A program made the position numbers and the translations under genes. The notes beneath the pieces are model-generated. The model made no database searches and was not told the origin of the DNA. It saw only the letters and a list, made by a program, of their open reading frames with translations. A stretch of DNA of 44,766 nucleotides from a virus. The DNA lies in the IMG/VR virus record IMGVR_UViG_3300037511_000572. One strand, given 5' to 3'. Shown one piece after another: positions 1,616 through 42,510 of the stretch; positions within the stretch are counted from its first letter, which is position 1, and each line of letters begins with the position of its first letter.

Positions 1616-1629
1616 GTCTTCCTGCGCGA

Positions 1630-2670: not shown

Positions 2671-2672
2671 GG

Positions 2673-6776: not shown

Positions 6777-6944
6777 ATGGACATGGTGAAGAGCGGCGAG
6801 ATTTCCTCGGACCAGGCGTCGCAGGTCCAGAACCGCGTGTACCAGATCCAGAGCGAGGTGTCCAGGATCATCTCCGGCCTCGCCCTGAACCAGGCGGAGG
6901 AGCTCCTCCAGTACTGCAGGGACTTCGCCTCCGGGGGCCAGTGA
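6777..6944 (+). CDS. Small hypothetical protein (55 aa; below the ORF-track cutoff)
   Basis: ATG lies 1 nt after the portal stop. Its stop overlaps the next GTG start (GTGA). High third-position GC. Confidence 0.45.
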   Translation: MDMVKSGEISSDQASQVQNRVYQIQSEVSRIISGLALNQAEELLQYCRDFASGGQ

Positions 6945-9008: not shown

Positions 9009-9034
9009 CGCAAATCAAAAGGAGGAGCTAGCTC

Positions 9035-9466: not shown

Positions 9467-9482
9467 GGGAGGGGACTAGCAC

Positions 9483-10589: not shown

Positions 10590-10680
10590 TCCCCTAGGAT
10601 CGGGCAAGAACACCCTCCTGCGGGTGCGGTCGATGTCCGGCTGCTGCCGCAGGAGGGAAACGACCAAGGAGGACAGACAG

Positions 10681-11340
10681 ATGAAATTCAAGACGAACAA
10701 GTTCCTGCTCGGGGGCCTGGCTCTGGCCATGGCTCTCTTCCTGTTCGACCGGTCCGCCGTCGGCGTCCGCGCGTACAACGCGGCCGTCTCAACGGTGTTC
10801 CCCGGGGACGTGCAGGTGGACGACCTCAAGCTGGCCGGAAACGACATCCTGGACAGCGGCGGGACGACCCGCATCACCACCGGCGCGACCACCACGCTGA
10901 CCGCCACGACCGTCGCCATCACCGGCAACGCCACCGTGTCCGGGACGCTCGCCGTGACCGGGGCGACCACGCAGACCGGCGCGCAGACGTTCGCCGCGCC
11001 CGTCACGTTCAGCTCCACCACCTACGCGGTGGTCCCGGCGACCGAGACCATCACCGCGGCGGCCACCATCACGGCCGACGCGTGCGGCGGGATCAAGCGC
11101 ATCAGCTCCGCCGGCAGCGTCACGACCAACACCACGAACACGTTCACGGCTCCCAGCTCCTCGAACGCCGGGTGCATCATGCTCCTGGTCAACGTGGGGT
11201 CCAACAACATCGTCCTGGACAACAACGCGCTGTTCGTGTCCGCGGCCGCGGGCGACATCACCGTCACGGCCAACGACGCCCTCATCGTGGCGACGGACGG
11301 GAACAAGTGGTACCAGATCAGCGCGCTGCTCGCCAATTAG
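10681..11340 (+). CDS. Fibre-like Thr/Ala/Gly-rich protein with an N-terminal signal peptide or membrane anchor
   Basis: AAGGAGG RBS. N-terminus MKFKTNKFLLGGLALAMALFLF, then GNATVSGTLAVTGATTQTG-type beta-helix repeats. Confidence 0.6.
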   Translation: MKFKTNKFLLGGLALAMALFLFDRSAVGVRAYNAAVSTVFPGDVQVDDLKLAGNDILDSGGTTRITTGATTTLTATTVAITGNATVSGTLAVTGATTQTGAQTFAAPVTFSSTTYAVVPATETITAAATITADACGGIKRISSAGSVTTNTTNTFTAPSSSNAGCIMLLVNVGSNNIVLDNNALFVSAAAGDITVTANDALIVATDGNKWYQISALLAN

Positions 11341-12763: not shown

Positions 12764-13186
12764 ATGCTTACTGTGGAAGAGGCGATCGTCGCAAGGCTAG
12801 CCGCTGACACGACCCTCGCGAACCTGCTGGGGGCGTCTGGCGGGGACGCCAGGATTTACCACGCCCTAGAGGCCATCCAGCCTAAGACGCAGTGCGTGAC
12901 ATACATGCACGTCACGAGCGTGCCGGGCGACATCAACGGCCTGAACGTGGCGGTGCAGGACGAACTGTACGTCTTCAACATATACCACAAGCAGTACGAG
13001 AAGGTCAAGGAGAGGATTTACTCCCTCCTGCAGAACTACCGGTTCCCCACCCCGAGCGACGCCGGCATCAAGTCGTGCGTGTGGGAGTGGGAGGGGCCGG
13101 ACGAGTTCGACGAGCGGCTGCAGGTCGGGCTGAAGAGGGCCCGCTTCCGGCTGTCGGTTGTAAGGTCGGCGCAGGCGCCGGTCTAA
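12764..13186 (+). CDS. Tail terminator / tail completion protein (DUF3168-like)
   Basis: 140 aa immediately upstream of the tube gene. N-terminus VEEAIVARLAADTTLANLLG is typical of DUF3168. Confidence 0.6.
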   Translation: MLTVEEAIVARLAADTTLANLLGASGGDARIYHALEAIQPKTQCVTYMHVTSVPGDINGLNVAVQDELYVFNIYHKQYEKVKERIYSLLQNYRFPTPSDAGIKSCVWEWEGPDEFDERLQVGLKRARFRLSVVRSAQAPV

Positions 13187-13209
13187 AATCCAGGAGGAGG
13201 AATAACAAA

Positions 13210-13971
13210 ATGGGAATCGGATACGCGGAACCGAAGCGACTGCTCCTCGGGCCCGGCGACCTCTACATCGACGACATTTTAGTCGGCCAGGTGAAGGACA
13301 GCGTCGAGGTCAAGTACAACCCGACCTACGCATACCAGCGGCCGGGCAACTCGATCGTCGACGTGAAGGGCGAGCGGACGGCCGAGGAGTTCACGATGAA
13401 GGCGAAGATTTGCGACTTCAAGGTGTCGCAGCTTCGCCGGGCCATGGGCATCAACGAGTCCATCCTGTCGGGCTCCATGACCCTTCGCAAGCAGGAAATC
13501 CTCCAGCTGTCCGGCACCACCAACGTGACCCTGGCCGAGACGGCCGTCGCGGGCACGATGAAGGTGGCGAAGCTGGACCGTGCGACCAACTACGCATCCG
13601 GCACCGACTACTCGGCCACGTCCACCACGATCGCCCGCAAGACGGGCGGCGCCGTGACGTCCGGGCAGTTCGTGATCGTGGAGTACGACTTCAGCGACTC
13701 CGCGGCCAACGGCGTCCGGTTCGGCGGCGAGAAGACGAAGGTCAACACCTTCGAGGTGAACTTCGTCCACAAGCTGTCCAACGGCAAGCTGGTCCAGGTG
13801 ACGATGTACAAGGCCATGTTCATGGGCGACCTGACCCTGGTCTTCGCCGAGAAGTCCAGCGGAAACTACACCCTGCACGAGGCCGAGTTCAAGGCGCTCG
13901 CGGACCTGACCAAGCCGGAGGGGCGCAACCTCGGAGAAATCATCGAGGAAGACCCCACGGCCGCGTCGTAA
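13210..13971 (+). CDS. Major tail (tube) protein
   Basis: 253 aa with RBS GGAGGAGG. Position after the terminator-like protein. Contains the S/T-rich patch YASGTDYSATSTTIARKTGGAVTSG. Confidence 0.7.
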   Translation: MGIGYAEPKRLLLGPGDLYIDDILVGQVKDSVEVKYNPTYAYQRPGNSIVDVKGERTAEEFTMKAKICDFKVSQLRRAMGINESILSGSMTLRKQEILQLSGTTNVTLAETAVAGTMKVAKLDRATNYASGTDYSATSTTIARKTGGAVTSGQFVIVEYDFSDSAANGVRFGGEKTKVNTFEVNFVHKLSNGKLVQVTMYKAMFMGDLTLVFAEKSSGNYTLHEAEFKALADLTKPEGRNLGEIIEEDPTAAS

Positions 13972-14028
13972 GCCGGAAAGATAAACCGAGACGCCGACCC
14001 GCGAGGGCGGAAAGGGAGGATGGAGCCA

Positions 14029-15123
14029 ATGTCAGAGCCCACCCAGAAGTCACTAGTGGAAGAGCAGCTGAAGGACTTGAAGGACGCGGGCCTGCCCGTC
14101 AGCAAGGGCATCCGCACGTTCAAAGACAACCAGCGCAAGACGAGCAAGTTCAACGAGAGGGTCCTAACGTTCTGGCTGCCGCAGTGGGCCAGGCAGGCGG
14201 CGATGAACTTCAAGGACATCTCCGGCGCGCCGAGCATGGGCTGGCTGAGGGCCTCCGCGAAGGGTCTGCCCGTGGTCGTGTGCGGCATCGGGCCGTCGCT
14301 CGACGGGGACCTCGAGACCCTGCGCAAGGCCCAGTCCAACCTCATCATCGTCGCCACCGACGCGGCGGTTCGACCCCTCCTGGCCGCTGGCGTGAAGCCG
14401 CACCTGGCCGTAAACTTCGACTGCAAGCAGAAGCAGCACACCCTCTTCGACGGGCTCAACAGCCTGACGTGGGACATCCCGCTGCTCGCCAACTCGTGCG
14501 CGCACCCGGACATGCTATCGGCCTGGCTCGGCCCGAAGCTCTACTTCAACATGCAGCACTTCGGGGTCGACTTCATGGACGCGGTGCTGCCGAACATCTA
14601 CCCGGAGTTCCAGCCCATGTCCAACCACGGGACCGTCGGCAACTCGGCGATCCTCGTGGCCTACCAGATGGGAGCGCGCCACATCATCCTCTCCGGCATG
14701 GACCTGTGCTACCAGAAGGTCGGCGACGGGTTCAAGTACCGCTGCAGGGACCACGCCTGGCGCGAGGCCGACGAGCAGGCCGGCCTACCAGCGGGCTGGG
14801 TCGAGAAGGAGAACAAGGTCCTCTACGACAACGACGACAGGCTCGCGCACACGTTCGAGGTCAAGGTCAAGGAGCGGGCGTTCCTGGTGGACGACCCACT
14901 CGACCAGTACCGCAAGATGGCCCTCGGGATCATAGGCTCCCTAGGCAACGTCGACGTAGTAGACTGCGCGCCGGACGGGATACTGAAGGCCTCCGGGGTC
15001 CGCGGCATGACGATAGGGGACGCGGTCACGGAGTTCGCGGCGCGCCCCATTGAGCCAGGAGAGGCCACGATTCTGCACCTGCCTCGGCTACTGCCGAGAG
15101 CAAAAGACGCCAAAGGCGCTTAG
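14029..15123 (+). CDS. Maf / MptE-like (DUF115) putative glycosyltransferase
   Basis: VVVCGIGPSLD ... LIIVATDAAVRPLLAAGVKPHLAVNFD ... GTVGNSAILVAYQMGARHIILSGMDLCY matches the DUF115 core. The ATG at 14029 has better RBS spacing than the track start at 14020. Confidence 0.75.
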   Translation: MSEPTQKSLVEEQLKDLKDAGLPVSKGIRTFKDNQRKTSKFNERVLTFWLPQWARQAAMNFKDISGAPSMGWLRASAKGLPVVVCGIGPSLDGDLETLRKAQSNLIIVATDAAVRPLLAAGVKPHLAVNFDCKQKQHTLFDGLNSLTWDIPLLANSCAHPDMLSAWLGPKLYFNMQHFGVDFMDAVLPNIYPEFQPMSNHGTVGNSAILVAYQMGARHIILSGMDLCYQKVGDGFKYRCRDHAWREADEQAGLPAGWVEKENKVLYDNDDRLAHTFEVKVKERAFLVDDPLDQYRKMALGIIGSLGNVDVVDCAPDGILKASGVRGMTIGDAVTEFAARPIEPGEATILHLPRLLPRAKDAKGA

Positions 15124-15133
15124 GAGGAGACAC

Positions 15134-15322
15134 ATGGAAGCGATCAAGGAGACGCCGCCGCCCATCGAGAGCGTGGCCGCGGCGCAGAAGAAGGAGAAGC
15201 TGGTGTTCAACCCCGGGCAGCTCGTGCCGCTCAACGGGGTCTGGTTCCAGATCGAGCGGGTCGAGAAGGAGGGCCTGTTCCTCAAGGCCGTCGGGTTCAC
15301 GAAGAACAGGGGGCGGAAATGA
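15134..15322 (+). CDS. Small hypothetical protein (62 aa) inside the glycosylation cassette
   Basis: AGGAGGAG RBS. Overlaps the next ATG (ATGA). Confidence 0.5.
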   Translation: MEAIKETPPPIESVAAAQKKEKLVFNPGQLVPLNGVWFQIERVEKEGLFLKAVGFTKNRGRK

Positions 15323-16332
15323 ACATCGTACACGTGACCACGACCGACCCCGCCGGCTCGGTCATCAACTTCGTGAACGCGGTCAACCGGCACACGCCGC
15401 ACCGCGCGAGGCTCATCACCACGAACAGGATCGAGGAGTACGACTTCCCGGCCGACCTACACTGGATCATGGACGGGGGCGACGAGATGTTCGCCCTCCT
15501 GGAGCAGGCGGACGTCATCCACCTGCACAAGGTGGACAACGAGTTCGAGCTAGAGGTCGACATGCCCAAGCTCGGCGTAGTCCGCAAGCTGAGCATCGCG
15601 GAGCTCCTCAAGCAGTTCCCGCAGAAGAAAGTGGTCTACCACATCCACGGCCACCCCTACGAGAGGGGCAACGTGGAGGAGAACGCGGCCAACTACAAGG
15701 CCCTCGGCGGGAGGGTGCTTTGCTCGACGCCGGACCTGGAGGAGATGTACAAGCCGCATTACGACGGCGTCCAGTACTTCCCGAACTGCGTGCCGGTGAA
15801 CGACGTGACCTACCTGCCCAGGCCGGTGGACGCGCCGATCCTCGGCTCAGACGGCGTTGCGCGGTACCTGGTCTCGCAGACGCCCACGCACGCGGTCCTG
15901 AAGAACTGCCACGTGATCGAGCAGGCCGTGCGGAACGTGGCAAAGAAGCACCCCGTGGCGTACGACAAGGCCTGGAACCTGCCCCAGCACTTCGCACTCC
16001 GGCGCAAGCGCATCTCCTCGGTGGTGTTCGACCACATCGAGGGGTATTACGGGCTTTCCAGCCTAGAGGGCCTGAGCATGGGCAAGCCCGTCATCGCCGG
16101 CCTGTCCGACTACACCATCTGCTCGATCGCGTCGTTCTTCGGGATCACCCCGCAGGACCTGCCGTGGGTCGTGGCGAGGGACCAGCAGCAGATCGAGGAG
16201 AAGCTGGACCTCCTGTTCAGCGACGAGGCGTACCGGCATGCGGCCGGCAAGGCGTCCCGCAAATTCATGGAGGAGGTCTGGAGTGATCGAGTTATCGGAC
16301 AACGACTGGCCGCATTCTACTCCTCCCTGTAA
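15319..16332 (+). CDS. GT-B fold glycosyltransferase (GT4-like)
   Basis: C-terminal FDHIEGYYGLSSLEGLSMGKPVIAG resembles the GT4 E-x7-E region. About 337 aa with a two-Rossmann-domain layout. Confidence 0.8.
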   Translation: MNIVHVTTTDPAGSVINFVNAVNRHTPHRARLITTNRIEEYDFPADLHWIMDGGDEMFALLEQADVIHLHKVDNEFELEVDMPKLGVVRKLSIAELLKQFPQKKVVYHIHGHPYERGNVEENAANYKALGGRVLCSTPDLEEMYKPHYDGVQYFPNCVPVNDVTYLPRPVDAPILGSDGVARYLVSQTPTHAVLKNCHVIEQAVRNVAKKHPVAYDKAWNLPQHFALRRKRISSVVFDHIEGYYGLSSLEGLSMGKPVIAGLSDYTICSIASFFGITPQDLPWVVARDQQQIEEKLDLLFSDEAYRHAAGKASRKFMEEVWSDRVIGQRLAAFYSSL

Positions 16333-17050
16333 GGGGGAGCCGCCGGCCAACACGGTCGGGATCGTAATCCCCGTCCGCGACGGCCTGAAGTTCCTGAAGC
16401 TGAGCCTGTACTCCGTGCTATACTTCACGCCGCACCCGTACATGCTGACCATCGTGGACAACATGAGTGGGCTGAAGACCAAGAAGTTCATACGGTCATT
16501 CGAGCAGAATCACCCGACGGACGTCCTGCGCTACGACGAGCCGTTCAACTTCGCGGCCCAGGCCAACCTCGGCCTCCGGAACGTGTTCTCCAGGGGGGCG
16601 CAGTTCGGGCTCGTCCTGAACGCGGACACCATCGTCGAGCCGGACTGGCTGGGGCTGCTGGTGGAGCGCATGCTCCAGGTCAAGGAGGCCGGCGCGATCG
16701 GGCCCGTGTCCCAGGTCGGCAACCCGGAGCAGACCCTGCAGGGCAAGCGCGGGGAGCGGCTGATGCAGGTGCGCCGGCTGTCCGGCTTCTGCATGATGGT
16801 CCGCAAGGCCGCGTTCGAGCAGTCCGGCGGGTTCGACGAGTCCTTTGCCGGCGGCGGGTTCGAGGACTGGGACCTGTCGCAGCGACTGCTGGACCTCGGG
16901 TGGAAGCTGCTGGTCGACGAGCGCGTGCTGGTGTGGCACTTCCACAAAGCGTTCCGCAGGTCCCCGGAGCACGACGTGGCCATGCGCACGAACGAGCGGC
17001 GGTTCTTCGAGAAGCACCCGAAGGTCGCGGAGGAGGTGCGCCGTGCATAG
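16283..17050 (+). CDS. GT-A fold glycosyltransferase (GT2 family)
   Basis: GIVIPVRDG, LNAD (DxD-like), GFCMMVRKAAFEQSGGFDE and FEDWDLSQRL motifs. GTG start with GGAGGAGG upstream. Confidence 0.8.
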   Translation: MIELSDNDWPHSTPPCKGEPPANTVGIVIPVRDGLKFLKLSLYSVLYFTPHPYMLTIVDNMSGLKTKKFIRSFEQNHPTDVLRYDEPFNFAAQANLGLRNVFSRGAQFGLVLNADTIVEPDWLGLLVERMLQVKEAGAIGPVSQVGNPEQTLQGKRGERLMQVRRLSGFCMMVRKAAFEQSGGFDESFAGGGFEDWDLSQRLLDLGWKLLVDERVLVWHFHKAFRRSPEHDVAMRTNERRFFEKHPKVAEEVRRA

Positions 17051-17573
17051 GCAGGCGCTGGACTTCCTGGAGCGGATGAAGCAGCAGTATTGGGACGTGT
17101 TCAAGGCCAAGCGCGTGCTCGAGCTCGGCAGTCTGGACATGAATGGCTCGCCCAGAGAATTCTTCTGGGCCCCGCAGGACTACGTCGGGGTGGACTGGCG
17201 CGAGGGCAAGGGCGTCGACGAGGTCAGCATGGCCCACGAGTACCGTGGCCGGCACGACGAGTACTTCGACTGCGTGGTGTCCACCGAGATGCTGGAGCAC
17301 GACCCGAAGTGGAGGGAAACCCTCCAGCGCGCGGTCGAGCTGCTCCGACCGGGCGGCCACATTGTGCTGACGATGGCCGGAACCGGCAGGCCTCCTCACG
17401 AAGTGGGCGTGGCCCCGGGCGAGAATCCGTACTACGAGAACCGGACCATCGAGGATATCGTCCAGCACGTCACGTCGCTCGCGCACTTCAGGATGGTGCA
17501 CGCAGAGGACAACCCGAACCCGGGCGACTCGTACTTTCTGTTCTACTGCAAGACCAAAAAGGAGGGCCTCTAA
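17043..17573 (+). CDS. Class I SAM-dependent methyltransferase
   Basis: VLELGSLDMNG (motif I-like), DCVVSTEMLEH and LLRPGGHIVLT. GTG overlaps the upstream stop. Confidence 0.7.
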   Translation: MHRQALDFLERMKQQYWDVFKAKRVLELGSLDMNGSPREFFWAPQDYVGVDWREGKGVDEVSMAHEYRGRHDEYFDCVVSTEMLEHDPKWRETLQRAVELLRPGGHIVLTMAGTGRPPHEVGVAPGENPYYENRTIEDIVQHVTSLAHFRMVHAEDNPNPGDSYFLFYCKTKKEGL

Positions 17574-28500: not shown

Positions 28501-28590
28501 TACCTCCAGTAGGTTCGGTATAACTTCCAGTTCACGCAAGCACCCATAATTTGTTACAAGATATTTACACACTTTTGGTCCAAGTCGGCG

Positions 28591-28596
28591 TATAAT
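28591..28596 (+). promoter_or_regulatory. Candidate -10 box (exact TATAAT) for the rightward small-gene block
   Basis: Lies in an AT-rich intergenic region 38 nt upstream of the ATG at 28634. Preceded by TTGGTCCAAG. No good -35 at 16-18 bp. Confidence 0.35.
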
Positions 28597-28633
28597 TATA
28601 TTGTAAGACAGTGCAAGACACGGAGGAACGAAC

Positions 28634-28831
28634 ATGAAAACCAAAGTTCAAATCGGTGACAAAGTGACGGTTATCAAAAGTTGGCGGAAAAACGAAACTG
28701 GGCGTAAAGGAAAAGTGGTGGAAATCTTCAAGCCTGTGGACTCGCGCTGGCCGGTTGCAGTGGTCAAGATGTCTGACGATTCTCGGCGGATTTTCAATCT
28801 TGGTGATCTTCGTAAGGAGTGCGTGAAATAA
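28634..28831 (+). CDS. Small KOW-motif-like protein (65 aa)
   Basis: GGAGG RBS. IGDKVTVIKSWRKNETGRKGKVVEI resembles a KOW motif. Confidence 0.5.
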   Translation: MKTKVQIGDKVTVIKSWRKNETGRKGKVVEIFKPVDSRWPVAVVKMSDDSRRIFNLGDLRKECVK

Positions 28832-28832
28832 T

Positions 28833-29012
28833 ATGATTACCCTGACCGGCATGGAAAAGGCGATTGTAAAAGCCCAGCAGGAGAAACTAGCCACCGCACA
28901 GAAGGACTTCATGACGGCCAAGACCAGGGTCAAGATGTACCAGGCGCTGGCCCGGATCAACAACGCGCAAAGGCTCATCAAGCACGTGAAGCACAACGGA
29001 TTCTGCCGCTAA
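28833..29012 (+). CDS. Small hypothetical protein (59 aa; below the ORF-track cutoff)
   Basis: ATG lies 1 nt after the upstream stop. Open frame ends at the TAA at 29010-29012. Confidence 0.45.
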   Translation: MITLTGMEKAIVKAQQEKLATAQKDFMTAKTRVKMYQALARINNAQRLIKHVKHNGFCR

Positions 29013-29023
29013 GGAGAATGAAC

Positions 29024-29215
29024 ATGAAAAACCAGATTGCCAAGTACTTCAAAGAAAGTTTTGATGGGTTCAAAGGAATCGCCGATCCCGTTGAACGTAC
29101 TGCCTTGGCTCTGGCTGAGACTTGCGGAAAATTTGAAATGGCCGAATATAAGGTTAGGGCTTGCATTCGATTTCCGCACTTGACTGTTCAAGAACTTTCT
29201 AAAAACTGGAAATAA
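29024..29215 (+). CDS. Small hypothetical protein
   Basis: AAGGAG at 29011-29016 is better spaced for the ATG at 29024 than for the track start at 29018. Confidence 0.5.
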   Translation: MKNQIAKYFKESFDGFKGIADPVERTALALAETCGKFEMAEYKVRACIRFPHLTVQELSKNWK

Positions 29216-29228
29216 AGGGAGAATTATC

Positions 29229-29441
29229 ATGACCATGCAACTCGAAGACCTGTTCCCGCTGCACTGCGAGCTGGCCTCTGCCGAGTTCGCCCGCGCCAAG
29301 GACGCCAAGGACCTAAGGAGCAAGCGTTACCACCTCGAACAGGCAATGTCGAACTTCCGGGTGATGGAGGAAGTGTTAGTCCAGACCGTAAACAAGGTCG
29401 TGTCGGCCGAGATTGCCGAGCGCATCAACAAAGGAGCGTGA
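29229..29441 (+). CDS. Small hypothetical protein (70 aa)
   Basis: AAGGGAG RBS 7 nt upstream of the ATG. Confidence 0.5.
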   Translation: MTMQLEDLFPLHCELASAEFARAKDAKDLRSKRYHLEQAMSNFRVMEEVLVQTVNKVVSAEIAERINKGA

Positions 29442-31469: not shown

Positions 31470-31837
31470 AACTCCTTGCCGCCGTGCATGTGGGGCCGTC
31501 CCGCGTTGAACTCCATCTTCGCGAGGACGGCCTCACTGATTTTCAGGCCGGTCTTGCCGGCGTAGGACATGATCCTGATTATGACGTCGGCTAGTTCCTC
31601 CTCCAGGCCGGAAAATTCCGGTATGTGGTCCGACTGCGGATTGCCGTGTCGCAAGAACTCGAGGGCCTCGCTCAACTCGGAGTGCATGAGGGCTATCTGC
31701 TCGGCATGGTTCGGGTCCTTGTCCCACCATCCCTTGTCCCTTGCTGTGTTGAACGCCGCGGCCTGCAGGAGCCCGAACGCCTCCTTGAACGCCTCGCGCG
31801 CTAGCTTACCGACATACTCCTTCTTTTGGGTTTCCAT
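31466..31837 (-). CDS. MazG-like nucleoside triphosphate pyrophosphohydrolase
   Basis: HSELSEALEFLRHG ... EELADVIIRIMSYA is an all-alpha NTP-PPase (EExxE/D-type) pattern. GAGGAGGA RBS before the ATG at 31837. Confidence 0.75.
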   Translation of the reverse strand: METQKKEYVGKLAREAFKEAFGLLQAAAFNTARDKGWWDKDPNHAEQIALMHSELSEALEFLRHGNPQSDHIPEFSGLEEELADVIIRIMSYAGKTGLKISEAVLAKMEFNAGRPHMHGGKEF

Positions 31838-33624
31838 CTCTCCTCCTCGGCGGCCCATTCCTTCTTATCTGCCCAACTCTTGTCCGTCACGGACACGTCC
31901 ACGCTGATCTTGACTGGGAACGTTATGTTGTCCTCCAGCCCGTCGACCAGCGCATGCTTCGCGTCCCATACCTGGTCCCTGCGGACCTCGATGCCGAGCT
32001 CGTCGTGCACGGTTATGAACGGATGCGCGTCCAACCCGACCAGGTTCTTGAACGTGTTGTTTATCCCGCGCTTCATGACGAGAGCCGCCGGGCCCTGGCA
32101 CAGGACGTTGGCGGCCTTGTAGCAGAGGTCCTTCGGGACATGATACGTCCTGCCAAACTGGTCCGTTACGTAGCCGTCCCTCAGCAGGTCGGCCTGAGAC
32201 TTCAGGAGGAAGTCCCTCGCCTGCGGCACCTCGCTAAAGAACTTGCCCTTGAGCTGCCTGGCCTTGTCCACCGTCACGCCCATCCGCGCGGCACACCTCG
32301 CTACGCCCATCCCGAATATGAAAGAGAAGTTAAGCTCCTTGGCCTGAAAGCGGATGCGCTTTATCTCGTCCTTCGACTTGCCGTCCATGCAATTCTTCCC
32401 GAACAGGCGATAGGCATTGGCCGTGTGGAAGTCCACACCCCTGCGCAGGTCCGCCAATATCCCTGGGTCGCCGACGTGGCAGGCGAATATACGGAACTCT
32501 ATCTGGGAGTAGTCCGCAAAGAGGAAGACGTAACCAGGCCGCGGGACCACCGCCCTGCGCACGAGCCCCGGGTCCTTGTTCATCTCCACGTTGCCGCCGC
32601 GCCCGCCTCCAGGAATGTTCTGGAAGTTCGGGTCTGTGCAGGAGAACCTTCCTGTTTTGATTCCGCCCTCCTCAGAGCCGAAGGGCCAGAAGTGCGGGTG
32701 AATCTTCCCGTCCTTGTTCTTCTCCAGGAACGGCTGGAAGTACGTGCTGTCTATCTTCTGGATGCTGCGCCAGTTCATCAGGGTCGATACAAACGGGTGG
32801 TCGGCATATGGCCTGAGCTCTTCGGCGCCCGTCGGCATCTGGCCCCGCGCGTTCTCCTCGCCGGTCTTAATCCCTAGGCTTTGGAGCACACTGCTTAGCT
32901 GGGCCGTTGACGCCTGATTGAACTTCACCCCGGCCAGGTCATACAGCTTCTTTTCCAGTTCCAGTTTCTTTGGCCCCAACTCTCTGAGCATCCTCTTGCA
33001 ATAGTCTAAATCCAAGTTTATGCCCCACCGTTCGAGCTCTACGATGTTGGGTATCAGCTCCTGCTCTATGTCGTACACACGTTTTTGCGGGCCGTTGACT
33101 ACGTGGCCGAATTTCCAGTTCGCCAGGAGCGTGAGGTCGAGGTCCTCTTCCAGATACGGCTCGACCATCTCTTTAGGCAAGCAGGAGTAGTTCACCTTCT
33201 CCTTCGCCTCTGGGGTCTTGGCCTTCCTGCGCAGCGCGGACAGGTATGCCTTTACCGCCTCCTCGTTCTGGGGCTCTCGGCCGAAGTGCCTCTTGCCGAC
33301 GCCCTTCAGCTTGAGATCCTGCTCATACTCATAGTTCATGTAGCACATGAGCATGGCGTCATGCACGCGGCCGCCGACCTTCACCCCCTCCTTGCGGGAT
33401 ACCGACAGGTCATACTTCACGTTCCACCCGACCTTCTCTACTGGGCTGGCCATGATTTCGCACGCGCGCTTCCACTCTGGCGTCCCGGGCCTGGCAAGCA
33501 GGACATTCCCGTCCTCGTCCTCAAGGCCCAGTAGAAACGGCTTCGCCTTCCCGACCCACACCTCCAGGCCCTCGGTCTCGTAGTCGAAGGCGACCCTGCC
33601 CGACGAGAATGGTTTCCTAGGCAT
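31801..33624 (-). CDS. polA: Family A DNA polymerase with 3'-5' exonuclease domain
   Basis: Exo I FDYETEGL. Motif A FADYSQIEFRIFA. Motif B RFQAKELNFSFIFGMG. Motif C ITVHDELGIE. Confidence 0.9.
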   Translation of the reverse strand: MPRKPFSSGRVAFDYETEGLEVWVGKAKPFLLGLEDEDGNVLLARPGTPEWKRACEIMASPVEKVGWNVKYDLSVSRKEGVKVGGRVHDAMLMCYMNYEYEQDLKLKGVGKRHFGREPQNEEAVKAYLSALRRKAKTPEAKEKVNYSCLPKEMVEPYLEEDLDLTLLANWKFGHVVNGPQKRVYDIEQELIPNIVELERWGINLDLDYCKRMLRELGPKKLELEKKLYDLAGVKFNQASTAQLSSVLQSLGIKTGEENARGQMPTGAEELRPYADHPFVSTLMNWRSIQKIDSTYFQPFLEKNKDGKIHPHFWPFGSEEGGIKTGRFSCTDPNFQNIPGGGRGGNVEMNKDPGLVRRAVVPRPGYVFLFADYSQIEFRIFACHVGDPGILADLRRGVDFHTANAYRLFGKNCMDGKSKDEIKRIRFQAKELNFSFIFGMGVARCAARMGVTVDKARQLKGKFFSEVPQARDFLLKSQADLLRDGYVTDQFGRTYHVPKDLCYKAANVLCQGPAALVMKRGINNTFKNLVGLDAHPFITVHDELGIEVRRDQVWDAKHALVDGLEDNITFPVKISVDVSVTDKSWADKKEWAAEEERWKPKRRSMSVS

Positions 33625-34096
33625 TGTTTCCAGCTATATTCGTGCGACGGCGTCGCGTGCGGAGGCCTGTGAAACCCTTCAGACTATGGTTCCTCTGCAG
33701 GCGGTTCAAGAGCCTTTTCCGAGTGCTTTTTATGCGGTTCGGCCGCATGGAATGCTCCCACACCCTTATGACGTGCCAGCCGCGCCTCCACAGCGCCTTC
33801 ACCGCCCGGACATCCCTGCGCATGTTCGCCTGGACCTTGCTGACCCAGAAGTCCACGTTCGACTTCGGCCTCTTGTAGTGCGTCGGGCACCCGTGGAAGA
33901 AGCAGCCGTGCACAAATATGGCGGTCTGGGCTGACGCCACCTTGAAGTCCGGCCGGCCCGGCAGTTCCTTCGCGTGCTCAGTGAAGACCTCCTCGGCGTC
34001 GAGCAGCATCCCGCGCATGAGGAGCTCCGGCTTCGTCCCGGTCGAGCGTATGCGGGACATGATCCAGCTACGCTTCTCTTTTGTCACCGTATCCAT
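33617..34096 (-). CDS. vsr: Very-short-patch repair (Vsr) T:G mismatch endonuclease homolog
   Basis: RSWIMSRIRSTGTKPE, LPGRPDF, IFVHGCFFHGC, FWVSKVQANMRRD and GWHVIRVWEH align with E. coli Vsr motifs. Confidence 0.85.
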   Translation of the reverse strand: MDTVTKEKRSWIMSRIRSTGTKPELLMRGMLLDAEEVFTEHAKELPGRPDFKVASAQTAIFVHGCFFHGCPTHYKRPKSNVDFWVSKVQANMRRDVRAVKALWRRGWHVIRVWEHSMRPNRIKSTRKRLLNRLQRNHSLKGFTGLRTRRRRTNIAGNNA

Positions 34097-34646
34097 GTCG
34101 TTTCCTCATGTATACAGCGCGCACTGCACCGCTTGAGCCCAGCGTGTTCACGCGCAGCAGCTCGAATCTGTTCATCCGAGCCTGCGTGTTAAACAGGCCG
34201 TTGACTGCCAACGGGGGGCCTACCTGTAGTATGACTGGCTCTATGGTCATGACTATCTGATCCACCAGGTCGTGCTGCAGGAAGAGCCCGTAGGTCGCCG
34301 CGCCGCCGCACAACATCATCTTGGTCTTATGGTTGTTCTCCAGGAAGTTCAGTATTTCGCCCGGCTTTGGCAGCAGGACGCCAACCTGCCCCTTCTGCTT
34401 CGTCCTTATGCCTGGGTCCCTGGACACCACCGCTACCGGCTTGCCAAGATTTGGCATTAGGTTCGCCGTTCGCGACCCGACTATGAGCATGCCCGCGTCC
34501 GCGAGGTCCGAATTGAAGAATTCCTTGTCCTCGGCGCTGGTCCATCCGCCTTTAGACACTTGGTTCGGGGAAGAGTCTTCCGCGGTGGATATGCGCCCGT
34601 CCAGGGACATGCACGCCACCATCTTTACCCAGGCCCTGTCGTTCAT
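34068..34646 (-). CDS. Dihydrofolate reductase-like protein (RibD C-terminal domain family)
   Basis: ACMSLDGRIS ... MLIVGSRTA ... MMLCGGAATYGLFLQHDLVDQIVMTIEPV. ATGA overlap with the upstream TS homolog. Confidence 0.7.
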   Translation of the reverse strand: MNDRAWVKMVACMSLDGRISTAEDSSPNQVSKGGWTSAEDKEFFNSDLADAGMLIVGSRTANLMPNLGKPVAVVSRDPGIRTKQKGQVGVLLPKPGEILNFLENNHKTKMMLCGGAATYGLFLQHDLVDQIVMTIEPVILQVGPPLAVNGLFNTQARMNRFELLRVNTLGSSGAVRAVYMRKRHGYGDKREA

Positions 34647-35497
34647 ATGACCAGCCTCGGGCCCGTGATCGCGGGCCACGGCTTGTACCACTCGTTGACC
34701 TGGCGGAACAGGTTCTTGGACAGCTCGTTGTCTCCGGCCATGGCGGCCATGACCATGTCCGGGAGCAGCTTGAGATAGAAGTCTCCCAGCTCCATCCTGG
34801 CCTGCCCCATGGACCGCGCGACCATCTGCACCGCCGGGTCCCACTGGTCCTCGTAGAGGTGGGCGTTGGAAATCAGGTAACCCACCTCACCAGGCCGCAC
34901 GCCCAGCTTGCACGCCATCAGCTCCTGTATTATCCTGAATCCGAGTATGTCATGAGGGAAACCGAAGTACATGTCCGCCGAGCGCTGGAGGACGTTCATG
35001 TGCAGCCTGCCGTCCATTATGTGGAAGTGCCAGGTCAGGATACACGGGGCGTTCGGCCCCGGCTTCACCAGGTCCGTGTCCGGCTGCCACGAGATGAGAA
35101 CTGCCTGCCGGCTCGTCTTGTCCTTCATCAGCCTGTCCAAGACGCCCTGCACCTGGTCGACGCCGTGCGCATGCCTCCAGCGATAGCCCGTGGCGGATCG
35201 CACGACCCCGTCCTCGTCCGCGAACTTGTCCCAGGTGCCGAAGCCATGCTGCCTCATAAGCGCCGGGGACTTCGCGCCGGACAGGAACCAGACCGCCTCG
35301 ACGCACGACCACAGCGGGCTGATGTTCCGCAGGTGGACTATGGGGAACTGAAACGGCTGGGTGTGGAAGAACAGCGCGTTGACCGCGCGCACCCACTTGC
35401 CCGTCCTGTCGTTCTTCGTCGGTGGGGCCTCTAGAATCCTGGACAGCGCCATGCCGTACTTCGAATCGAAAAGGGTTACGCGCCCTTGGTCTTGCAT
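34643..35497 (-). CDS. Thymidylate synthase (ThyA) family homolog with Asp at the Asn177 position; candidate dCMP methylase/hydroxymethylase
   Basis: KNDRTGK, VEAVWFLSG, SRQAVLISWQ, NAPC (catalytic Cys) and QRSADMYFGFPHDILGF (E. coli has QRSCDVFLGLPFNIASY). ATG at 35497; GTG at 35506 is an alternative start. Confidence 0.8.
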   Translation of the reverse strand: MQDQGRVTLFDSKYGMALSRILEAPPTKNDRTGKWVRAVNALFFHTQPFQFPIVHLRNISPLWSCVEAVWFLSGAKSPALMRQHGFGTWDKFADEDGVVRSATGYRWRHAHGVDQVQGVLDRLMKDKTSRQAVLISWQPDTDLVKPGPNAPCILTWHFHIMDGRLHMNVLQRSADMYFGFPHDILGFRIIQELMACKLGVRPGEVGYLISNAHLYEDQWDPAVQMVARSMGQARMELGDFYLKLLPDMVMAAMAGDNELSKNLFRQVNEWYKPWPAITGPRLVI

Positions 35498-35811
35498 TTC
35501 TTCCACCTCCTGAGCATCAACTCCAGCCTAGCCAGCGCGTCCCAAGCCGCGTGCGCGGCGTGCGGGAGCCCCGACTCCTCGTCGTCCCTCTCATACGCTT
35601 CCTCTAGCAGGTGGCGCCCAAGTGCGGCGGTGTACCTGTTCTCGCCGTCCTTGACGAACTGCCAGCCGCCCCTGGTATACTTCATCTTGCCGAACGTGCC
35701 CACCGCGGCCACGGCGCGCAGCGCCATGCCGAAGTCCAGCAGCAGGCTCACGTCCGGCTTCCCGCCGTCCAGCTTCATGCCCTTCTTATGAGGGTTTGGT
35801 TTTCTCGGCAC
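35476..35811 (-). CDS. DUF5664 (dATP/dGTP diphosphohydrolase N-terminal-like) protein
   Basis: DGGKPDVSLL ... FGKMKYTRGGW ... RYTAALGRHL ... DDEESGLPHAAHAAWDALARLEL matches the family pattern. Confidence 0.7.
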   Translation of the reverse strand: MPRKPNPHKKGMKLDGGKPDVSLLLDFGMALRAVAAVGTFGKMKYTRGGWQFVKDGENRYTAALGRHLLEEAYERDDEESGLPHAAHAAWDALARLELMLRRWKKCKTKGA

Positions 35812-38344
35812 CGCTCCCCTCCTTCCAGTACTTGTGCTTCTTCTTTCCGGACACTATAAGGTCAACATGGCTCCACCCCGCCCTGCGGAGGACCTCGGCC
35901 GAGTCCACCAGCCGCGTCCCCAATTGTCTGTCGTTTATCCACGGGCACCTGATCGCCAGCGACTTAGCCAGGATGCGGAAGTCGGACAACAGGTCCCGCG
36001 TGCTGAACTTCATGACCGTCTTGCCGTCGACCGTGCCCACCCTCGTCTGCGCGCCCATGAGGACGAGCTGGTTGTAGCGCGATACGTAGGTGTCCAGGAA
36101 GTAAAGGACCTCGTCCGTCCCCTCGTTCTGCCTGTGCACGGCCCTGGTCTGACTCTCCAACCAGTGCGCCGTCAGGTCCCTGGAGGACTTGTACCCCTTT
36201 ATCGGCAGGTAACCCCAGAACGCGTCAAGCATCAAGGCCATGAGGGCAAAGTACTCGTTGAACCTCTCCTTGCCGTGCGCGCCGAACGCCCCCATGATCC
36301 TGCCGACCTCGCCCTTCCTGACCCTGGGCAGGACGTGCTTGTGTATAATGTAGAGGATAGCGCTGAGTATCTTGTTCCGATTGGCCGCCAGGCCTTGGAA
36401 TATCTTTGTCTCATGGAACTTGGAATTGCCCCAACGCTCTATATCGAGCTGCAGCTCCATGGTCCTGTCGATCAGCTCGTGCTTGTTGAACGGCTCGATG
36501 CCATTGGTCAGCACCAGGCAGTTCGCGTGGTATTGGATCATGCCCGTGTCCGACGACATCATCCGCTTCGACTTCACGCCGCCGGTCGCAGCAATCAGCA
36601 GGAAGTCCTCCAGCAGCGGGGTCATGTTCCTAGTCTCCAGGTTGTCCATGAATATGATAGGGTACATGGAGCTCATCTCGTAGTAGGCCGCCATCGTAGA
36701 AGCCGCGATGTTCAGCATCTCCTGCCCGTAGAATAGGAGGCTGGCCATCTTCGAGGCGGTCGACTTCGCCGAGGCCGTCTTGGCCAGTAGCCTCACTATC
36801 GGCTTCGGCTTTATGTGGTCCCTGAAGAACATGCCGGACAGCCAGCACACGAGCAGGAACCTGTCCTCCTCGCACATGGCCAGGTTATCCATGAACAGGG
36901 AGCGCAGCAGCTGCAGGCCCTCCGCGACCGGCTTGGCTGGAAGCGTGGGTATCTCCATGCCGATCACCGGCAGGTTGAGCAGCACCTTCTCGTCGTTGAC
37001 CGCGTTCCTGATGTGCTTGCAGGACTCCTCAGAGACCTTCAGCAGCTTGTCCTTGCCAGCGTGCACGTAGAGCAGGCCCTTGTGGTACATGCTCCAGGAA
37101 CCCGTCTTCGACATGGCGCTGGCCACGGCCGCGTTGGTCTTCACCCTCTCCAGGATGAACCTGCCGACCTGCGTCGCGTTGTTGTATATGGGGTTGATCC
37201 TGCCGAGGAAGTGCATGAACGGTCCCGGGTCCTTGGTGATCTTCATCACCCCGAACTCCTCGTGCGCGTAGAAGCACTCGCCGGCCTCGCTCTTGAAGAA
37301 GGCCCCGTTGTCTACCAGTGCGTCCCACACAGCCTCCGACCTGGCGACCAGGCGCTCCTCGTCGGTGGACCTAGCGGTCGCCTCGTAAGCCAGGCCAGGC
37401 AGCATGCCCGTCTCCTTGCGCGCGTGGCTCTGCTTCTCTCCGGCCTTCTTCTCGACCTTCGCCAGCTGGAGCAGCTCCTCGGCCGAGCCCTCGTACTTCA
37501 GCAGCCAGTCGGTCAGGTCCTCCCCTGGCTCCTTTAGCCTAGGCAGCTCGACGATCCTGCACGACCTGGCTGTCTTGGACAGTTCGGCCATCCTGTTCTG
37601 CGCGCCTTTCATGCCGGGGCCGTCGTTGTCCGGGACGATTACTACGTCTTTCCCTTTGAACAGCTTGTTCCACTCCGGCTTCCACGTGGTCGCGCCGCCG
37701 GACGGGGTTATTGTGCTGAGCCCGTGTTGCGCCCCTAGGATCGCGTCCATCTCGCCCTCTACCACAATGACGGTGTCGAACTTCAGGCTCTCCAACGGGA
37801 ACAGCCTGGCCGAGCCGTATCCCTCCTTGTATGAGAGCATCTTCGGCCCGCCGGTCTTCAGCAGGTCATACTTGCGCAGGTTCACGCACATGCCCAGGTC
37901 GTTGAATATGGGGATCGTCAGTCGGCCGTTCTGGTAGCCGAGGTTGAAGCCCTTGACGGTCTTCAGCTCTATGCCACGCATCTCCTTCAAGCGGCCAAGG
38001 ATAAACGTGTTCTCAAGCAGTTTTTTGTGCGGGGTCTTGTACTCTTCAGGAGGGATAACGGGCTCCACCCAGTTCGAGTAGAGTATGCGGGCGGCGGCTT
38101 CCCTGGAGACCTCTTTGTAGTCAGAGAAGAAGTACACGGGGGACGTGGCCTTGTAGCCGCAGCCGTGGCAGAAGGCCCCGCCGGTGTCTGAAAAAAGCTT
38201 AAGCGACGGCAGCGAGTCCTTCCCGCCGCGGTGCTTCTCGGGCCACGGGCAAGCGACGTTGCTCTTGCCGTCCCATTCCAAGAGGTCTCTGTAGAACTCT
38301 TGCACGTCCATGGACTTCTTTATGCGCTCCAGAATCTGTTCCAC
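35786..38344 (-). CDS. Bifunctional DNA primase / helicase
   Basis: Zinc finger CPWPEKH...CHGCG. TOPRIM VIVVEGEMDAI ... VIVPDNDGPG. C-terminal P-loop-like domain. GTG at 38344 has GGAGGA 8 nt upstream; the track start at 38431 is a TTG. Confidence 0.8.
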   Translation of the reverse strand: MEQILERIKKSMDVQEFYRDLLEWDGKSNVACPWPEKHRGGKDSLPSLKLFSDTGGAFCHGCGYKATSPVYFFSDYKEVSREAAARILYSNWVEPVIPPEEYKTPHKKLLENTFILGRLKEMRGIELKTVKGFNLGYQNGRLTIPIFNDLGMCVNLRKYDLLKTGGPKMLSYKEGYGSARLFPLESLKFDTVIVVEGEMDAILGAQHGLSTITPSGGATTWKPEWNKLFKGKDVVIVPDNDGPGMKGAQNRMAELSKTARSCRIVELPRLKEPGEDLTDWLLKYEGSAEELLQLAKVEKKAGEKQSHARKETGMLPGLAYEATARSTDEERLVARSEAVWDALVDNGAFFKSEAGECFYAHEEFGVMKITKDPGPFMHFLGRINPIYNNATQVGRFILERVKTNAAVASAMSKTGSWSMYHKGLLYVHAGKDKLLKVSEESCKHIRNAVNDEKVLLNLPVIGMEIPTLPAKPVAEGLQLLRSLFMDNLAMCEEDRFLLVCWLSGMFFRDHIKPKPIVRLLAKTASAKSTASKMASLLFYGQEMLNIAASTMAAYYEMSSMYPIIFMDNLETRNMTPLLEDFLLIAATGGVKSKRMMSSDTGMIQYHANCLVLTNGIEPFNKHELIDRTMELQLDIERWGNSKFHETKIFQGLAANRNKILSAILYIIHKHVLPRVRKGEVGRIMGAFGAHGKERFNEYFALMALMLDAFWGYLPIKGYKSSRDLTAHWLESQTRAVHRQNEGTDEVLYFLDTYVSRYNQLVLMGAQTRVGTVDGKTVMKFSTRDLLSDFRILAKSLAIRCPWINDRQLGTRLVDSAEVLRRAGWSHVDLIVSGKKKHKYWKEGSGAEKTKPS

Positions 38345-38453
38345 TCGGCGGTCCTCCCCAGTGAGGGTTGAGAGGAGGGACACCTCGAGCCGGGGGACGC
38401 CACCCTCACAGTGGCGGAGCCCCCGGCCCAAGGGCCCTTCTGTCTTCGGGCTG

Positions 38454-41314: not shown

Positions 41315-42361
41315 CTAATCCCCTCGTTCCTCGGGCAGCTCCTCGTGCGCGCGCTCCTTAATGCGGTAGTGCAGGAGGTTCTCCTTCGTCACGCCGTCGA
41401 GGCAAAGCTTCATGAACGGGCACGTCCCCATCGCCGTGCAGTGGCCGGCGTTCTGGATGAAGTCGTTCTCCCGCTGGGCCCTGTCGACGTGCTTGATGAA
41501 CTTGACCGTCTCCCGGCCAAAGCGGTCGAGGTCGGAGTCGTTGAACAGGATGGGCTCGCGGTAGAAGTAGGCGCCGGGGTTGAGGTAGTACTCGTCCTCC
41601 ACGCGCCTGAGGAACTGCCGGAGGGACTCGGACTGCTTCTGCCGTATCTGCGGCTTCTTCACCACGTTGTAGACGATCCCGCCAAACTTCTCGCCGCCGG
41701 ACTCGCGCTGGGACCAGGCGTATCCGAGTATCTGGTTGTCCATGGGGAGCTTGGCCACGTAGCCGGCGTCTATCCTCCCGGCCGTCTTGTGCTCCACCAG
41801 GAGGAGCCGCTTCGTCTTCTTGCTGCGGACCACCAGGTCCTTCTTGCCGGTGTACCTCCAGCCGTCCGGCAGGTCCGCCTTGAACACGCCCTCGGCCTCT
41901 ATGAGGTCCCACGCCTTCCTGTCCTCGGCCAGGTACTTCTGCTTGTAGCCCTTGACCATGCCGACGACCACCGCCTGCTGCATCCAAATGAGGTCCGACT
42001 CCTCGGCCCTCAGGCCCGGCGTCTTGCAGGCCTTCTCGCACGCGTCGCCGACCCTGTCCCGCATGGCCTCCTCGTCCAGCTTCCACGTCTTGTACATGTA
42101 CTCCATCTCGTTGTGGAAGAGGCCGCCCACGAGGAACGGGATGGACGGCTTGCGCGGCGCCAGGCCGTAGACGTAGGAGTACTGGTACTTCTGCTGGCAG
42201 TTGAGGAAAGTGGAGCGCGCAGAGTTCGTAAGGACCTTCCCCCACTTGAACGGCTTGAGGTCCTTGACCCCGGCGAACGTGACCTCCCCGGCCATGTGGC
42301 GCCCGGAGGACTGGCCGTCCCAGAGGTCCTTGAACTTCGCGAGTGCGTCGTTGCCCTTCAC
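41315..42361 (-). CDS. PD-(D/E)xK exonuclease, Cas4/RecB-like with a Cys cluster
   Basis: GKKDLVV ... LLLVEHKT (D...ExK). One N-terminal Cys plus C-terminal HCTAMGTCPFMKLC. GTG at 42361 overlaps the upstream stop; an ATG at 42295 is an alternative start. Confidence 0.75.
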   Translation of the reverse strand: MKGNDALAKFKDLWDGQSSGRHMAGEVTFAGVKDLKPFKWGKVLTNSARSTFLNCQQKYQYSYVYGLAPRKPSIPFLVGGLFHNEMEYMYKTWKLDEEAMRDRVGDACEKACKTPGLRAEESDLIWMQQAVVVGMVKGYKQKYLAEDRKAWDLIEAEGVFKADLPDGWRYTGKKDLVVRSKKTKRLLLVEHKTAGRIDAGYVAKLPMDNQILGYAWSQRESGGEKFGGIVYNVVKKPQIRQKQSESLRQFLRRVEDEYYLNPGAYFYREPILFNDSDLDRFGRETVKFIKHVDRAQRENDFIQNAGHCTAMGTCPFMKLCLDGVTKENLLHYRIKERAHEELPEERGD

Positions 42362-42510
42362 AGCATGTCCTCTATCAAGGCGTACACGACCAACAGGATG
42401 GGAGTGAATGCGCACCCTGCCAGGAACTGCCTGTTTGTTACCAATCCAAATAGGCAGATTAGCCCAAGCATGGCAGCAATGCCGAGCCCCTTCAAACGCC
42501 AGTCGTTCAT
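42358..42510 (-). CDS. Small two-TM membrane protein (50 aa)
   Basis: GAGGAG RBS. GLGIAAMLGLICLFGLV and FLAGCAFTPILLVVYALI. Confidence 0.5.
   Translation of the reverse strand: MNDWRLKGLGIAAMLGLICLFGLVTNRQFLAGCAFTPILLVVYALIEDML

Follow-up and report, generated by a model that had tools for sequence, protein, structure and literature searches.

A Vsr endonuclease within a predicted operon for cytosine modification and replication in phages without a DNA methyltransferase

We propose a model for a very-short-patch repair type T:G mismatch endonuclease (Vsr) encoded by a phage whose genome holds no C5-cytosine DNA methyltransferase (C5-MTase). The phage is represented by IMG/VR virus record IMGVR_UViG_3300037511_000572, the whole stretch of 44,766 nucleotides being referred to here as the window. 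Its vsr gene stands in an operon for replication and nucleotide metabolism, beside a thymidylate synthase (TS) homolog predicted to methylate dCMP. The reading that we favour, at a probability of about one half, draws on analogy with known 5-methylcytosine (5mC) phages and holds that the protein would be an active T:G nickase serving a genome for which 5mC is produced ahead of replication in place of cytosine. What appears to be new is that a Vsr is found in an operon that combines replication with pre-replicative cytosine modification, in a lineage without a DNA methyltransferase; the Vsr family and bacterial orphan vsr genes are known already, and literature searches covering Vsr, MetaGPA and XP12-type phages turned up no mention of such an arrangement.

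Sequence and model together identify the gene product as a canonical full-length member of the Vsr family. The open reading frame (ORF) begins with an ATG preceded, six bases upstream, by the Shine-Dalgarno sequence GAGGAAA. The motifs from which the original prediction had recognised a Vsr homolog are present (ELPGRPDF, IFVHGCFFHGCP, DFWVSKVQANMRRD and GWHVIRVWEH), and the assignment is agreed upon by the Pfam profile PF03852 (1.7e-21, 76.3 bits against a cutoff of 27), by NCBIfam TIGR00632 (114.8 bits, above the curated cutoff of 97.85, with residues 1-115 covering model positions 2-118 of 119, that is, the full length), by alignment of residues 6-134 to the Escherichia coli Vsr structure 1CW0 (5e-19) and by an AlphaFold2 model. 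The latter, built on 43 homologs with a mean pLDDT of 89.3 and a pTM of 0.81, has as its top matches in the Protein Data Bank (PDB) 1CW0_A (TM 0.74/0.76, rmsd 2.5 A, E 4e-11) and 1VSR, followed in third place by the catalytic domain of I-Bth0305I (3R3P, TM 0.49), while the match to AbaSI is marginal (TM 0.36, E 0.15).

Pairwise alignment to the E. coli enzyme places the catalytic residues D51, H64, H69 and D97 at D50, H63, H68 and D95 of the phage protein, with D50, H68 and D95 invariant in the 43-sequence alignment, and the mismatch-wedge aromatics F67, W68 and W86 at F66, F67 and W84. The zinc-site positions C66, H71, C73 and C117 align with C65, C70, the region of H73 and H115, all four being ligand-capable residues, and the catalytic aspartate and the zinc-site histidines and cysteines singled out in the original prediction are thus present by alignment. 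The zinc site is of a common subtype, HGCFFH-GCPxH...WEH, which many bacterial Vsr share and which across the family covaries against the HxxC...WEC form of E. coli. All 17 family-invariant columns of the family alignment are kept, and in the N-terminal DNA-binding helix motif KEKRSWIMSRI the residues R9, S10 and M13 are invariant; the roles of the E. coli residues, namely intercalation by F67, W68 and W86 and the function of the N-terminal helix, we take to be those of the 1CW0 literature. The Vsr core spans residues about 1-137, and the sole lineage-specific feature is a basic C-terminal tail of residues about 138-159 (FTGLR...), confined to the closest phage relatives. The protein is a single domain of 159 residues without a modification-reading module or an added DNA-binding domain, and a scan of specificity positions found Met27, Phe51 and Arg111 alone to be common to the module-linked Vsr groups, none of them a known functional residue.

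The last 100 nt of the window repeat the first 100 nt exactly, leaving 44,666 unique bp, and several independent samples yielded the same phage assembled at about 44.69 kb. Together these mark a complete, circularly assembled genome, in which the absence of a methyltransferase is testable. On ORFs from gene calls based on third-codon-position GC content (GC3), as suits a high-GC genome, Pfam (36 ORFs) and PHROGs (20 ORFs) scans returned no DNA methyltransferase of any class, and no reading frame holds the C5-MTase motifs F.G.G, PCQ and ENV all in co-linear order. A hidden Markov model (HMM) of C5-MTases, made from three divergent phage Dcm proteins (KL3 gp47, phiS11 gp08 and AH2 gp35), picked up, in viral contigs used as controls, the methyltransferases adjoining Vsr (E values of 1e-26 to 1e-90) and found none in the six-frame translation of the genome (best E = 2), nor any in the relatives described below. 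The genome is without a C5-MTase, as the original prediction had it, a closer search for a Dcm-type enzyme in the complete sequence having come back empty, and the locus is not a canonical Vsr plus Dcm system.

The vsr gene belongs to a minus-strand module of about 31.3 to 44.6 kb (Table 1), the order of which is ERCC4 nuclease, PD-(D/E)XK nuclease, dCMP-deaminase homolog, AAA_24 ATPase, single-stranded DNA-binding-like protein and primase-helicase, and then MazZ-like pyrophosphatase, TS homolog, RibD_C/dihydrofolate reductase (DHFR)-like reductase, Vsr, PolA and MazG. With PolA on one side and the DHFR-like and TS genes on the other, vsr lies where it had been placed from the letters alone, between the polymerase and the folate/TS genes. 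The genes are tightly packed: TS and the DHFR-like gene overlap by 4 nt, the start of the latter overlapping the TS stop codon; the 3′ end of the DHFR-like gene overlaps the start of vsr by 29 nt; and vsr and PolA overlap by 8 nt. The ATG of PolA sits among the final codons of vsr, so that translation of the two genes is probably coupled. The boundaries of the DHFR-like gene follow public gene calls in one assembly (L117), and its orthologs in relatives match DHFR_1 (weakly) as well as RibD_C. By family, the MazZ-like enzyme is a candidate dCTPase that would supply dCMP and remove dCTP from the pool. A dNMP kinase was not recognised in the genome. In one relative (L093) a thymidylate-kinase-family gene (Thymidylate_kin, 9351-10004) lies directly upstream of TS and is a candidate 5-methyl-dCMP (5mdCMP) kinase, and in two others (L006/L007, 3384-3779 / 8233-8628) an unrelated 131-aa protein (17% identity) takes the place of the MazZ-like pyrophosphatase and may have assumed the dCTPase function by non-orthologous replacement.

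Table 1. Positions of vsr, of its neighbours in the replication module and of an island in the structural module of the window
Feature	Coordinates	Strand	Basis or remarks
Vsr (very-short-patch repair type T:G mismatch endonuclease), 159 aa	33617..34096	-	PF03852, TIGR00632, 1CW0, AlphaFold2 model
RibD_C/DHFR-like reductase, candidate dihydrofolate reductase, 192 aa	34068..34646	-	Pfam RibD_C 7e-13
Thymidylate-synthase homolog, predicted dCMP C5-methylase	34643..35506	-	Pfam Thymidylat_synt 3.7e-39
MazZ-like all-alpha dNTP diphosphohydrolase, candidate dCTPase, 111 aa	35476..35811	-	PF18909 dGTP_diPhyd_N 2e-22; PHROGs 'dATP/dGTP pyrophosphohydrolase'
Family A DNA polymerase (PolA) with 3′-5′ exonuclease domain	31801..33624	-	DNA_pol_A 1e-64; DNA_pol_A_exo1 weak
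MazG-type nucleotide pyrophosphatase, 130 aa	31466..31858	-	Pfam MazG weak; PHROGs pyrophosphatase 5.6e-30
dCMP-deaminase-family protein, 139 aa	40628..41047	-	Pfam dCMP_cyt_deam_1 5e-22
Primase-helicase (Toprim), upstream operon member	35786..38431	-	Pfam Toprim_2; syntenic in all relatives
PD-(D/E)XK (Cas4/RecB-like) nuclease, conserved replication module	41315..42415	-	Pfam PDDEXK_1 4e-14
ORF in island	12892-13971		Weak PHROGs virion-structural match; structural module
MptE-like/PseD-like (Maf-type glycosyltransferase-like) protein	14020-15123		Island in structural module
ORF in island	15319-16332		No Pfam/PHROGs matches; structural module
UbiG-like class I S-adenosylmethionine methyltransferase	16845-17573		Island in structural module

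The TS homolog is the only TS match in the genome. It carries an aspartate at the position of E. coli Asn177 (FPHDILGF), in keeping with the Asp-variant TS homologs named in the original prediction; this residue, D186, is invariant in the TS alignment, and an aspartate occupies the position in 40 of 45 TS homologs. The change from Asn177 to Asp switches TS from dUMP to dCMP and is the determinant associated with modified contigs. In the MetaGPA experiment, the domains enriched on cytosine-modified contigs include Thymidylat_synt, dCMP_cyt_deam_1, DNA_pol_A, PDDEXK_1 and DUF2786. The homolog is 31% identical to the TS of phage XP12 (E 5e-36), which has been shown by experiment to be a 5mdCMP synthase, 5mC fully replacing cytosine in that phage, while the XP12-type deaminase converts 5-methyldeoxycytidine (5mdC) nucleotides to dT nucleotides so that no second TS is needed (bioRxiv 10.1101/2024.12.05.627091). 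Among the annotated phages with the lowest E values for the TS of the window is DoCa10, of the genus of XP12, and its PDB matches are headed by canonical TS enzymes of the reductive kind, with T4 dCMP hydroxymethylase outside the top 60. Only a reductive TS reaction calls for a DHFR, dihydrofolate being a product of methylation alone; the DHFR-like gene beside TS would therefore point to a reductive, methylating reaction.

The likeness to XP12 and to the pamexvirus-bosavirus group extends to a toolkit of Asp-type TS, dCMP deaminase, DHFR, a pyrophosphatase or hydrolase near the helicase, family A polymerase and Cas4, and to the lack of a DNA methyltransferase; in XP12 itself TS, deaminase and DHFR lie together (L111, 30378-32196). 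Unlike the present phage, XP12 has no Vsr, a different genome architecture and a length of 64 kb as against 44.7 kb, and the proteins of the two are only some 30% identical. The deaminase of the window is a candidate for the same conversion of 5mdC nucleotides to dT nucleotides by analogy with XP12. It is 33% identical to the XP12 deaminase and about 41% to generic phage dCMP deaminases, and by sequence stands no closer to the former. Taken together, the Asp-type TS, the XP12-like toolkit, the domains enriched in MetaGPA and the DHFR-like gene make nucleotide-level 5mC likely in this phage.

The association of Vsr with this module holds across most of the lineage. A 10-kb query compared by megablast with 50,697 phage records gave no match, and the phage thus has no annotated close relative there. 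Single-protein scans of IMG/VR returned only distant loci for Vsr and nothing for TS, alignment-based scans being needed. Four close relatives, with Vsr 67-83% identical, show the same order of TS, DHFR, Vsr and PolA; Vsr identity to the window, at 68-79%, stays inside the limits set by the adjacent genes (TS 67-69%, PolA 81-83%, DHFR 44-45%). Ratios of nonsynonymous to synonymous substitution (dN/dS) of 0.22-0.38 for Vsr and 0.28-0.32 for TS place vsr under purifying selection. More distant relatives, with TS 32-57% identical, came from scans of the protein database, of metagenomes and of IMG/VR, and when distinct modules with the TS-to-PolA interval covered are counted (n = 17), 13 carry Vsr at the slot or adjoining it (the window, L005, L006/7, the P0004 and P0003 contigs, L091, L092, L093, L095, L098/L107, L099, L100 and L106). 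All 17 have the aspartate in TS and no C5-MTase, at a locus GC of 46% to 68%. A scan of cellular genome contigs returned distant cellular TS genes only and no Vsr.

Pairwise distances among the Vsr proteins are congruent with those of TS (Mantel r = 0.85) and of the primase-helicase (0.83), at p = 4e-4, although a close trio drives much of this. Core-gene GC3 has a median of about 0.88 in the Vsr-bearing lineages and lies between 0.63 and 0.80 in those without, in a comparison (n = 12) that is non-independent and confounded with host GC; higher GC3 in most Vsr-bearing lineages would fit a larger 5mC load, L095, with Vsr and a GC3 of 0.46, being a counter-example.

Individual relatives vary around this pattern. 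The intact Vsr of L091 (11388-11792; 43-48% identical to other module Vsr) falls in a 400-bp gap in the public gene calls and was found by tblastn, which means that censuses based on annotation under-count Vsr in the lineage. The Vsr of L098/L107 (7763-8173) reads FGDYWH in place of HGCFFH, placing Phe and Asp at the positions of window H63, elsewhere H or D, and C65, invariant in the Vsr alignment; to judge by these residues it may have an altered zinc site or be inactive. In L095 (2672-3936) and L100 (2-894) Vsr directly follows TS with no DHFR-like gene between. Next to PolA and MazG, relatives carry other small repair nucleases, namely Endonuclease_7 (L006, 7482-7787) and a T4 endonuclease V-like Pyr_excise gene (P0004 contig, 6824-7156). 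MetaGPA shows enrichment of these two domains, too, on modified contigs, and the region near PolA seems to collect repair functions.

Elsewhere among viruses Vsr keeps different company. We compared 83 viral-contig Vsr loci, chosen by similarity to the phage Vsr and with flanks of up to 10 kb, and found a C5-MTase in the flanks of 68 (82%), within 1.5 kb in 58, and a TS homolog in none; in cultured phages Vsr is likewise flanked by a C5-MTase. The premise of the original prediction that Vsr normally travels with a Dcm-type methyltransferase agrees with this; as to the co-occurrence of vsr with TS homologs that it had suggested surveying, Vsr accompanies the Asp-type TS in 13 of the 17 lineage modules, against a TS homolog in 0 of the 83 other loci. 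The lineage of the window is a distinct exception among viral Vsr loci. The temperate Burkholderia phages KL3 and AH2 and the Oenococcus phage phiS11 encode Vsr 36-42% identical to the present one, but within restriction-modification cassettes, beside a C5-MTase and usually a restriction enzyme. An unrelated virus (L016, IMGVR_UViG_3300029258_004290, 86.9 kb, 69% GC) offers a second case of Vsr amid nucleotide metabolism: at 8720-11133 a Vsr of 207 aa, 52% identical, has as its two neighbours a dCMP deaminase and ThyX, a thymidylate synthase of the flavin-dependent type, with PolA, a 5′-3′ exonuclease and an RNase_T exonuclease nearby and no C5-MTase in the examined flanks.

Cellular systems provide further points of comparison. 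With the E. coli Vsr/Dcm system (1CW0, 1VSR) the phage protein shares family, fold, catalytic Asp and His, aromatic wedge, N-terminal helix and a size of about 155 aa; it differs in the GCPxH...WEH zinc variant, in the lack of dcm, in its setting within a phage replication and nucleotide operon and in its expected context, which would be any 5mC rather than CCWGG. V.NgoAXIII of Neisseria gonorrhoeae cuts T:G in all nucleotide contexts, as an all-5mC genome would need, although this enzyme is cellular and accompanies several C5-MTases that are sequence-specific. Nor is an orphan vsr without precedent, and to that extent the framing of the original prediction, correct as to the absence of Dcm from the genome, has to be tempered: VsrA of Caulobacter crescentus is unlinked to any methyltransferase gene (PMC12907096). 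The Caulobacter chromosome nevertheless encodes elsewhere a solitary C5-MTase, ScmA, whereas the phage genome has none and its source of 5mC would be the nucleotide pool.

We suggest the following model as the one that most reasonably accommodates these observations. In the infected cell dCTP would be hydrolysed to dCMP by the pyrophosphatase, and dCMP would be converted to 5mdCMP by the Asp-variant TS homolog, the dihydrofolate produced being recycled by the adjacent DHFR-like enzyme. Part of the 5mdC nucleotide pool would pass to dT through the deaminase homolog, and PolA would build an all-5mC genome. Full base replacement protects a phage from restriction, but the phage inherits the chemistry of its new base: 5mC deaminates faster than cytosine, and the product, thymine, escapes uracil glycosylase. 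Hydrolytic deamination of any 5mC in such a genome would leave a T:G mismatch to which uracil glycosylase is blind and which host Vsr, being confined to Dcm sites, would not generally reach. The phage Vsr, expressed from the replication operon and coupled to PolA, would then nick the T strand 5′ of the T, probably in any context, and repair synthesis from the phage dNTP pool would restore 5mC:G. Candidates for the steps after the nick are host Pol I and ligase and, more speculatively, the PD-(D/E)XK nuclease as an exonuclease. We infer, and do not observe, 5mC in the virion DNA, T:G activity, context independence and the identity of the post-nick enzymes. In double-stranded DNA at 37 C, 5mC deaminates at roughly 6e-13 per second, and if all cytosines of the genome were 5mC, roughly 28,000 residues would give on the order of 1e-3 deaminations per genome per day.

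The model provides a rationale for the XP12-like toolkit, the conserved slot, the purifying selection on vsr and the contrast with viruses in which a C5-MTase is the usual neighbour, and in these respects the original prediction, that a phage Vsr would be the matching repair function for 5mC made at the nucleotide level, has gained ground. Several observations weigh against it. Vsr is dispensable, given that XP12 lacks it and that four of the 17 related modules do as well (L090, L096/L108, L105 and the L101-L104 group); Xanthomonas and Pseudomonas phage records gave no Vsr match, and in the MetaGPA supplementary table Vsr occurs on 0 modified and 29 unmodified contigs, a comparison of low power. 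The loci that show the association all come from one phage lineage and could owe it to inheritance of a single event instead of repeated selection. In a neighbour-joining tree of 195 Vsr domains, poorly resolved, the module-linked Vsr form four groups and not one clade, a topology that fits either a single acquisition or multiple captures. Among deaminase-linked TS homologs tested, 5mdCMP was obtained from 5 of 7 (bioRxiv 10.1101/2024.12.05.627091), which leaves 5-hydroxymethylcytosine (5hmC) or another product possible. Finally, no 5′-3′ exonuclease or ligase was recognised among the ORFs of the genome, and PolA has only a 3′-5′ exonuclease domain.

Some of the same evidence can be read in other ways. 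The enzyme and its chemistry could be as we propose and the damage enzymatic, T:G arising on transient single-stranded DNA from a 5mC-preferring deaminase of the phage or from a host defence that deaminates DNA or dC. A homolog, mSCD-B5, does deaminate 5mC in single-stranded DNA as well as in nucleotides (bioRxiv 10.1101/2024.12.05.627091), the window and most of its Vsr-bearing relatives have the deaminase in the same module, and in the unrelated L016 Vsr is the immediate neighbour of both ThyX and a dCMP deaminase. The two genes do not, however, covary in the lineage of the window, as L090, L096 and the L101 group have the former without the latter and L091 has Vsr with no deaminase in the region covered, and the deaminase of the window stands no nearer to that of XP12 than to generic enzymes; we consider this source of mismatches unlikely, although it retains some weight. 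Slightly less probable in our judgement is a genome that is not fully 5mC, with TS making 5hmdCMP or another product and Vsr serving as a general accessory repair enzyme for host Dcm-type methylation, hydroxymethyluracil:G or U:G. Asp-type TS homologs include hydroxymethylases, the two of seven that gave no 5mdCMP are in keeping with this, and the repair genes gathered near PolA in relatives, Endonuclease_7 and Pyr_excise, suggest that the region accumulates such functions generally; on the other side stand the reductive chemistry implied by the DHFR-like gene, the resemblance of the TS homolog to reductive enzymes and to that of XP12 rather than to the T4 hydroxymethylase, and a replication module in which neither a glycosyltransferase nor any other hmC-tailoring gene was found.

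Two further explanations turn away from repair of the phage genome. Vsr might act on the host, nicking or destabilising its unmodified DNA, as the original prediction had offered as an alternative, or binding MutL and so turning off host mismatch repair. Overproduction of E. coli Vsr switches off host mismatch repair via MutL. Gonococcal Vsr enzymes physically bind MutL, and Vsr-like nuclease domains also occur in modification-dependent restriction enzymes such as AbaSI. A Caulobacter Vsr-like protein triggers a DNA-damage response without matching methylation (PMC12907096). The phage protein, as a single domain that keeps the family-invariant residues and all three wedge aromatics, differs from repair Vsr at only a few non-catalytic positions and resembles AbaSI marginally; an attack on unmodified host DNA finds no positive support here, and action on the host in general seems improbable. 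Most improbable of all, and the least likely of the four rivals in view of the conserved slot, the purifying selection and the canonical Vsr features, is a selfish free-standing homing endonuclease inserted among replication genes. Genes for nucleotide metabolism and replication are the typical surroundings between which homing endonucleases of phages are found, the presence of Vsr is patchy (13/17), and I-Bth0305I, which occurs in phage and shares the PD-(D/E)XK Vsr-like core fold, is the third structural match. That enzyme is, however, intron-encoded with an extra DNA-binding region, which the phage protein lacks, and is only 18% identical to it; Vsr passes the curated family model with TM scores to true Vsr well above that to I-Bth0305I, has diverged in step with its neighbours under constraint, overlaps genes on both sides, and has left no remnant in the Vsr-less L090, where a different small ORF is found instead.

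Outside the replication module three regions stand apart. A four-gene island (12892-17573), set within the structural module with head genes on one side and the tape-measure gene on the other, may be a virion-protein glycosylation or modification cassette. It includes the only methyltransferase-fold protein of the genome, which we weighed as a possible hidden DNA methyltransferase but dismissed, since it is of the UbiG-like small-molecule type and is encoded among structural genes. In the roughly 3.4 kb of sequence that precedes the terminase (1-3521), the long ORFs 448-1470 (+), 1448-1891 (-) and 1836-3521 (+) have no Pfam or PHROGs matches and a GC3 of 0.69-0.78, against 0.82-0.98 in the rest of the genome. 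Two minus-strand ORFs of 143 and 104 aa inside a plus-strand block (28565-29323), without family matches, have a GC1 of about 0.41 and a GC3 of 0.57-0.62 where the local GC falls to 0.56; they may be morons of recent acquisition.

Returning to repair of a 5mC genome as the preferred reading, a more far-reaching version, which we hold only tentatively, is that in this lineage very-short-patch repair has been uncoupled from methylation at specific sequences, and that Vsr, wired into the replication operon, provides context-independent, genome-wide proofreading of 5mC-to-T changes. In that version no dedicated repair function would have been described before for a virus with DNA of a non-canonical base, and the phages would be a natural source of an any-context T:G nickase. 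If the model is wrong, vsr would be an ordinary accessory repair gene. If it is correct, the combination of Vsr and Asp-type TS without a methyltransferase would serve as a marker for uncultured 5mC phages, and that marker would predict any-context T:G nickases useful in mismatch and methylation assays. Furthermore, it would mean that viruses with substituted bases carry maintenance functions matched to those bases, a largely unexplored side of DNA hypermodification.

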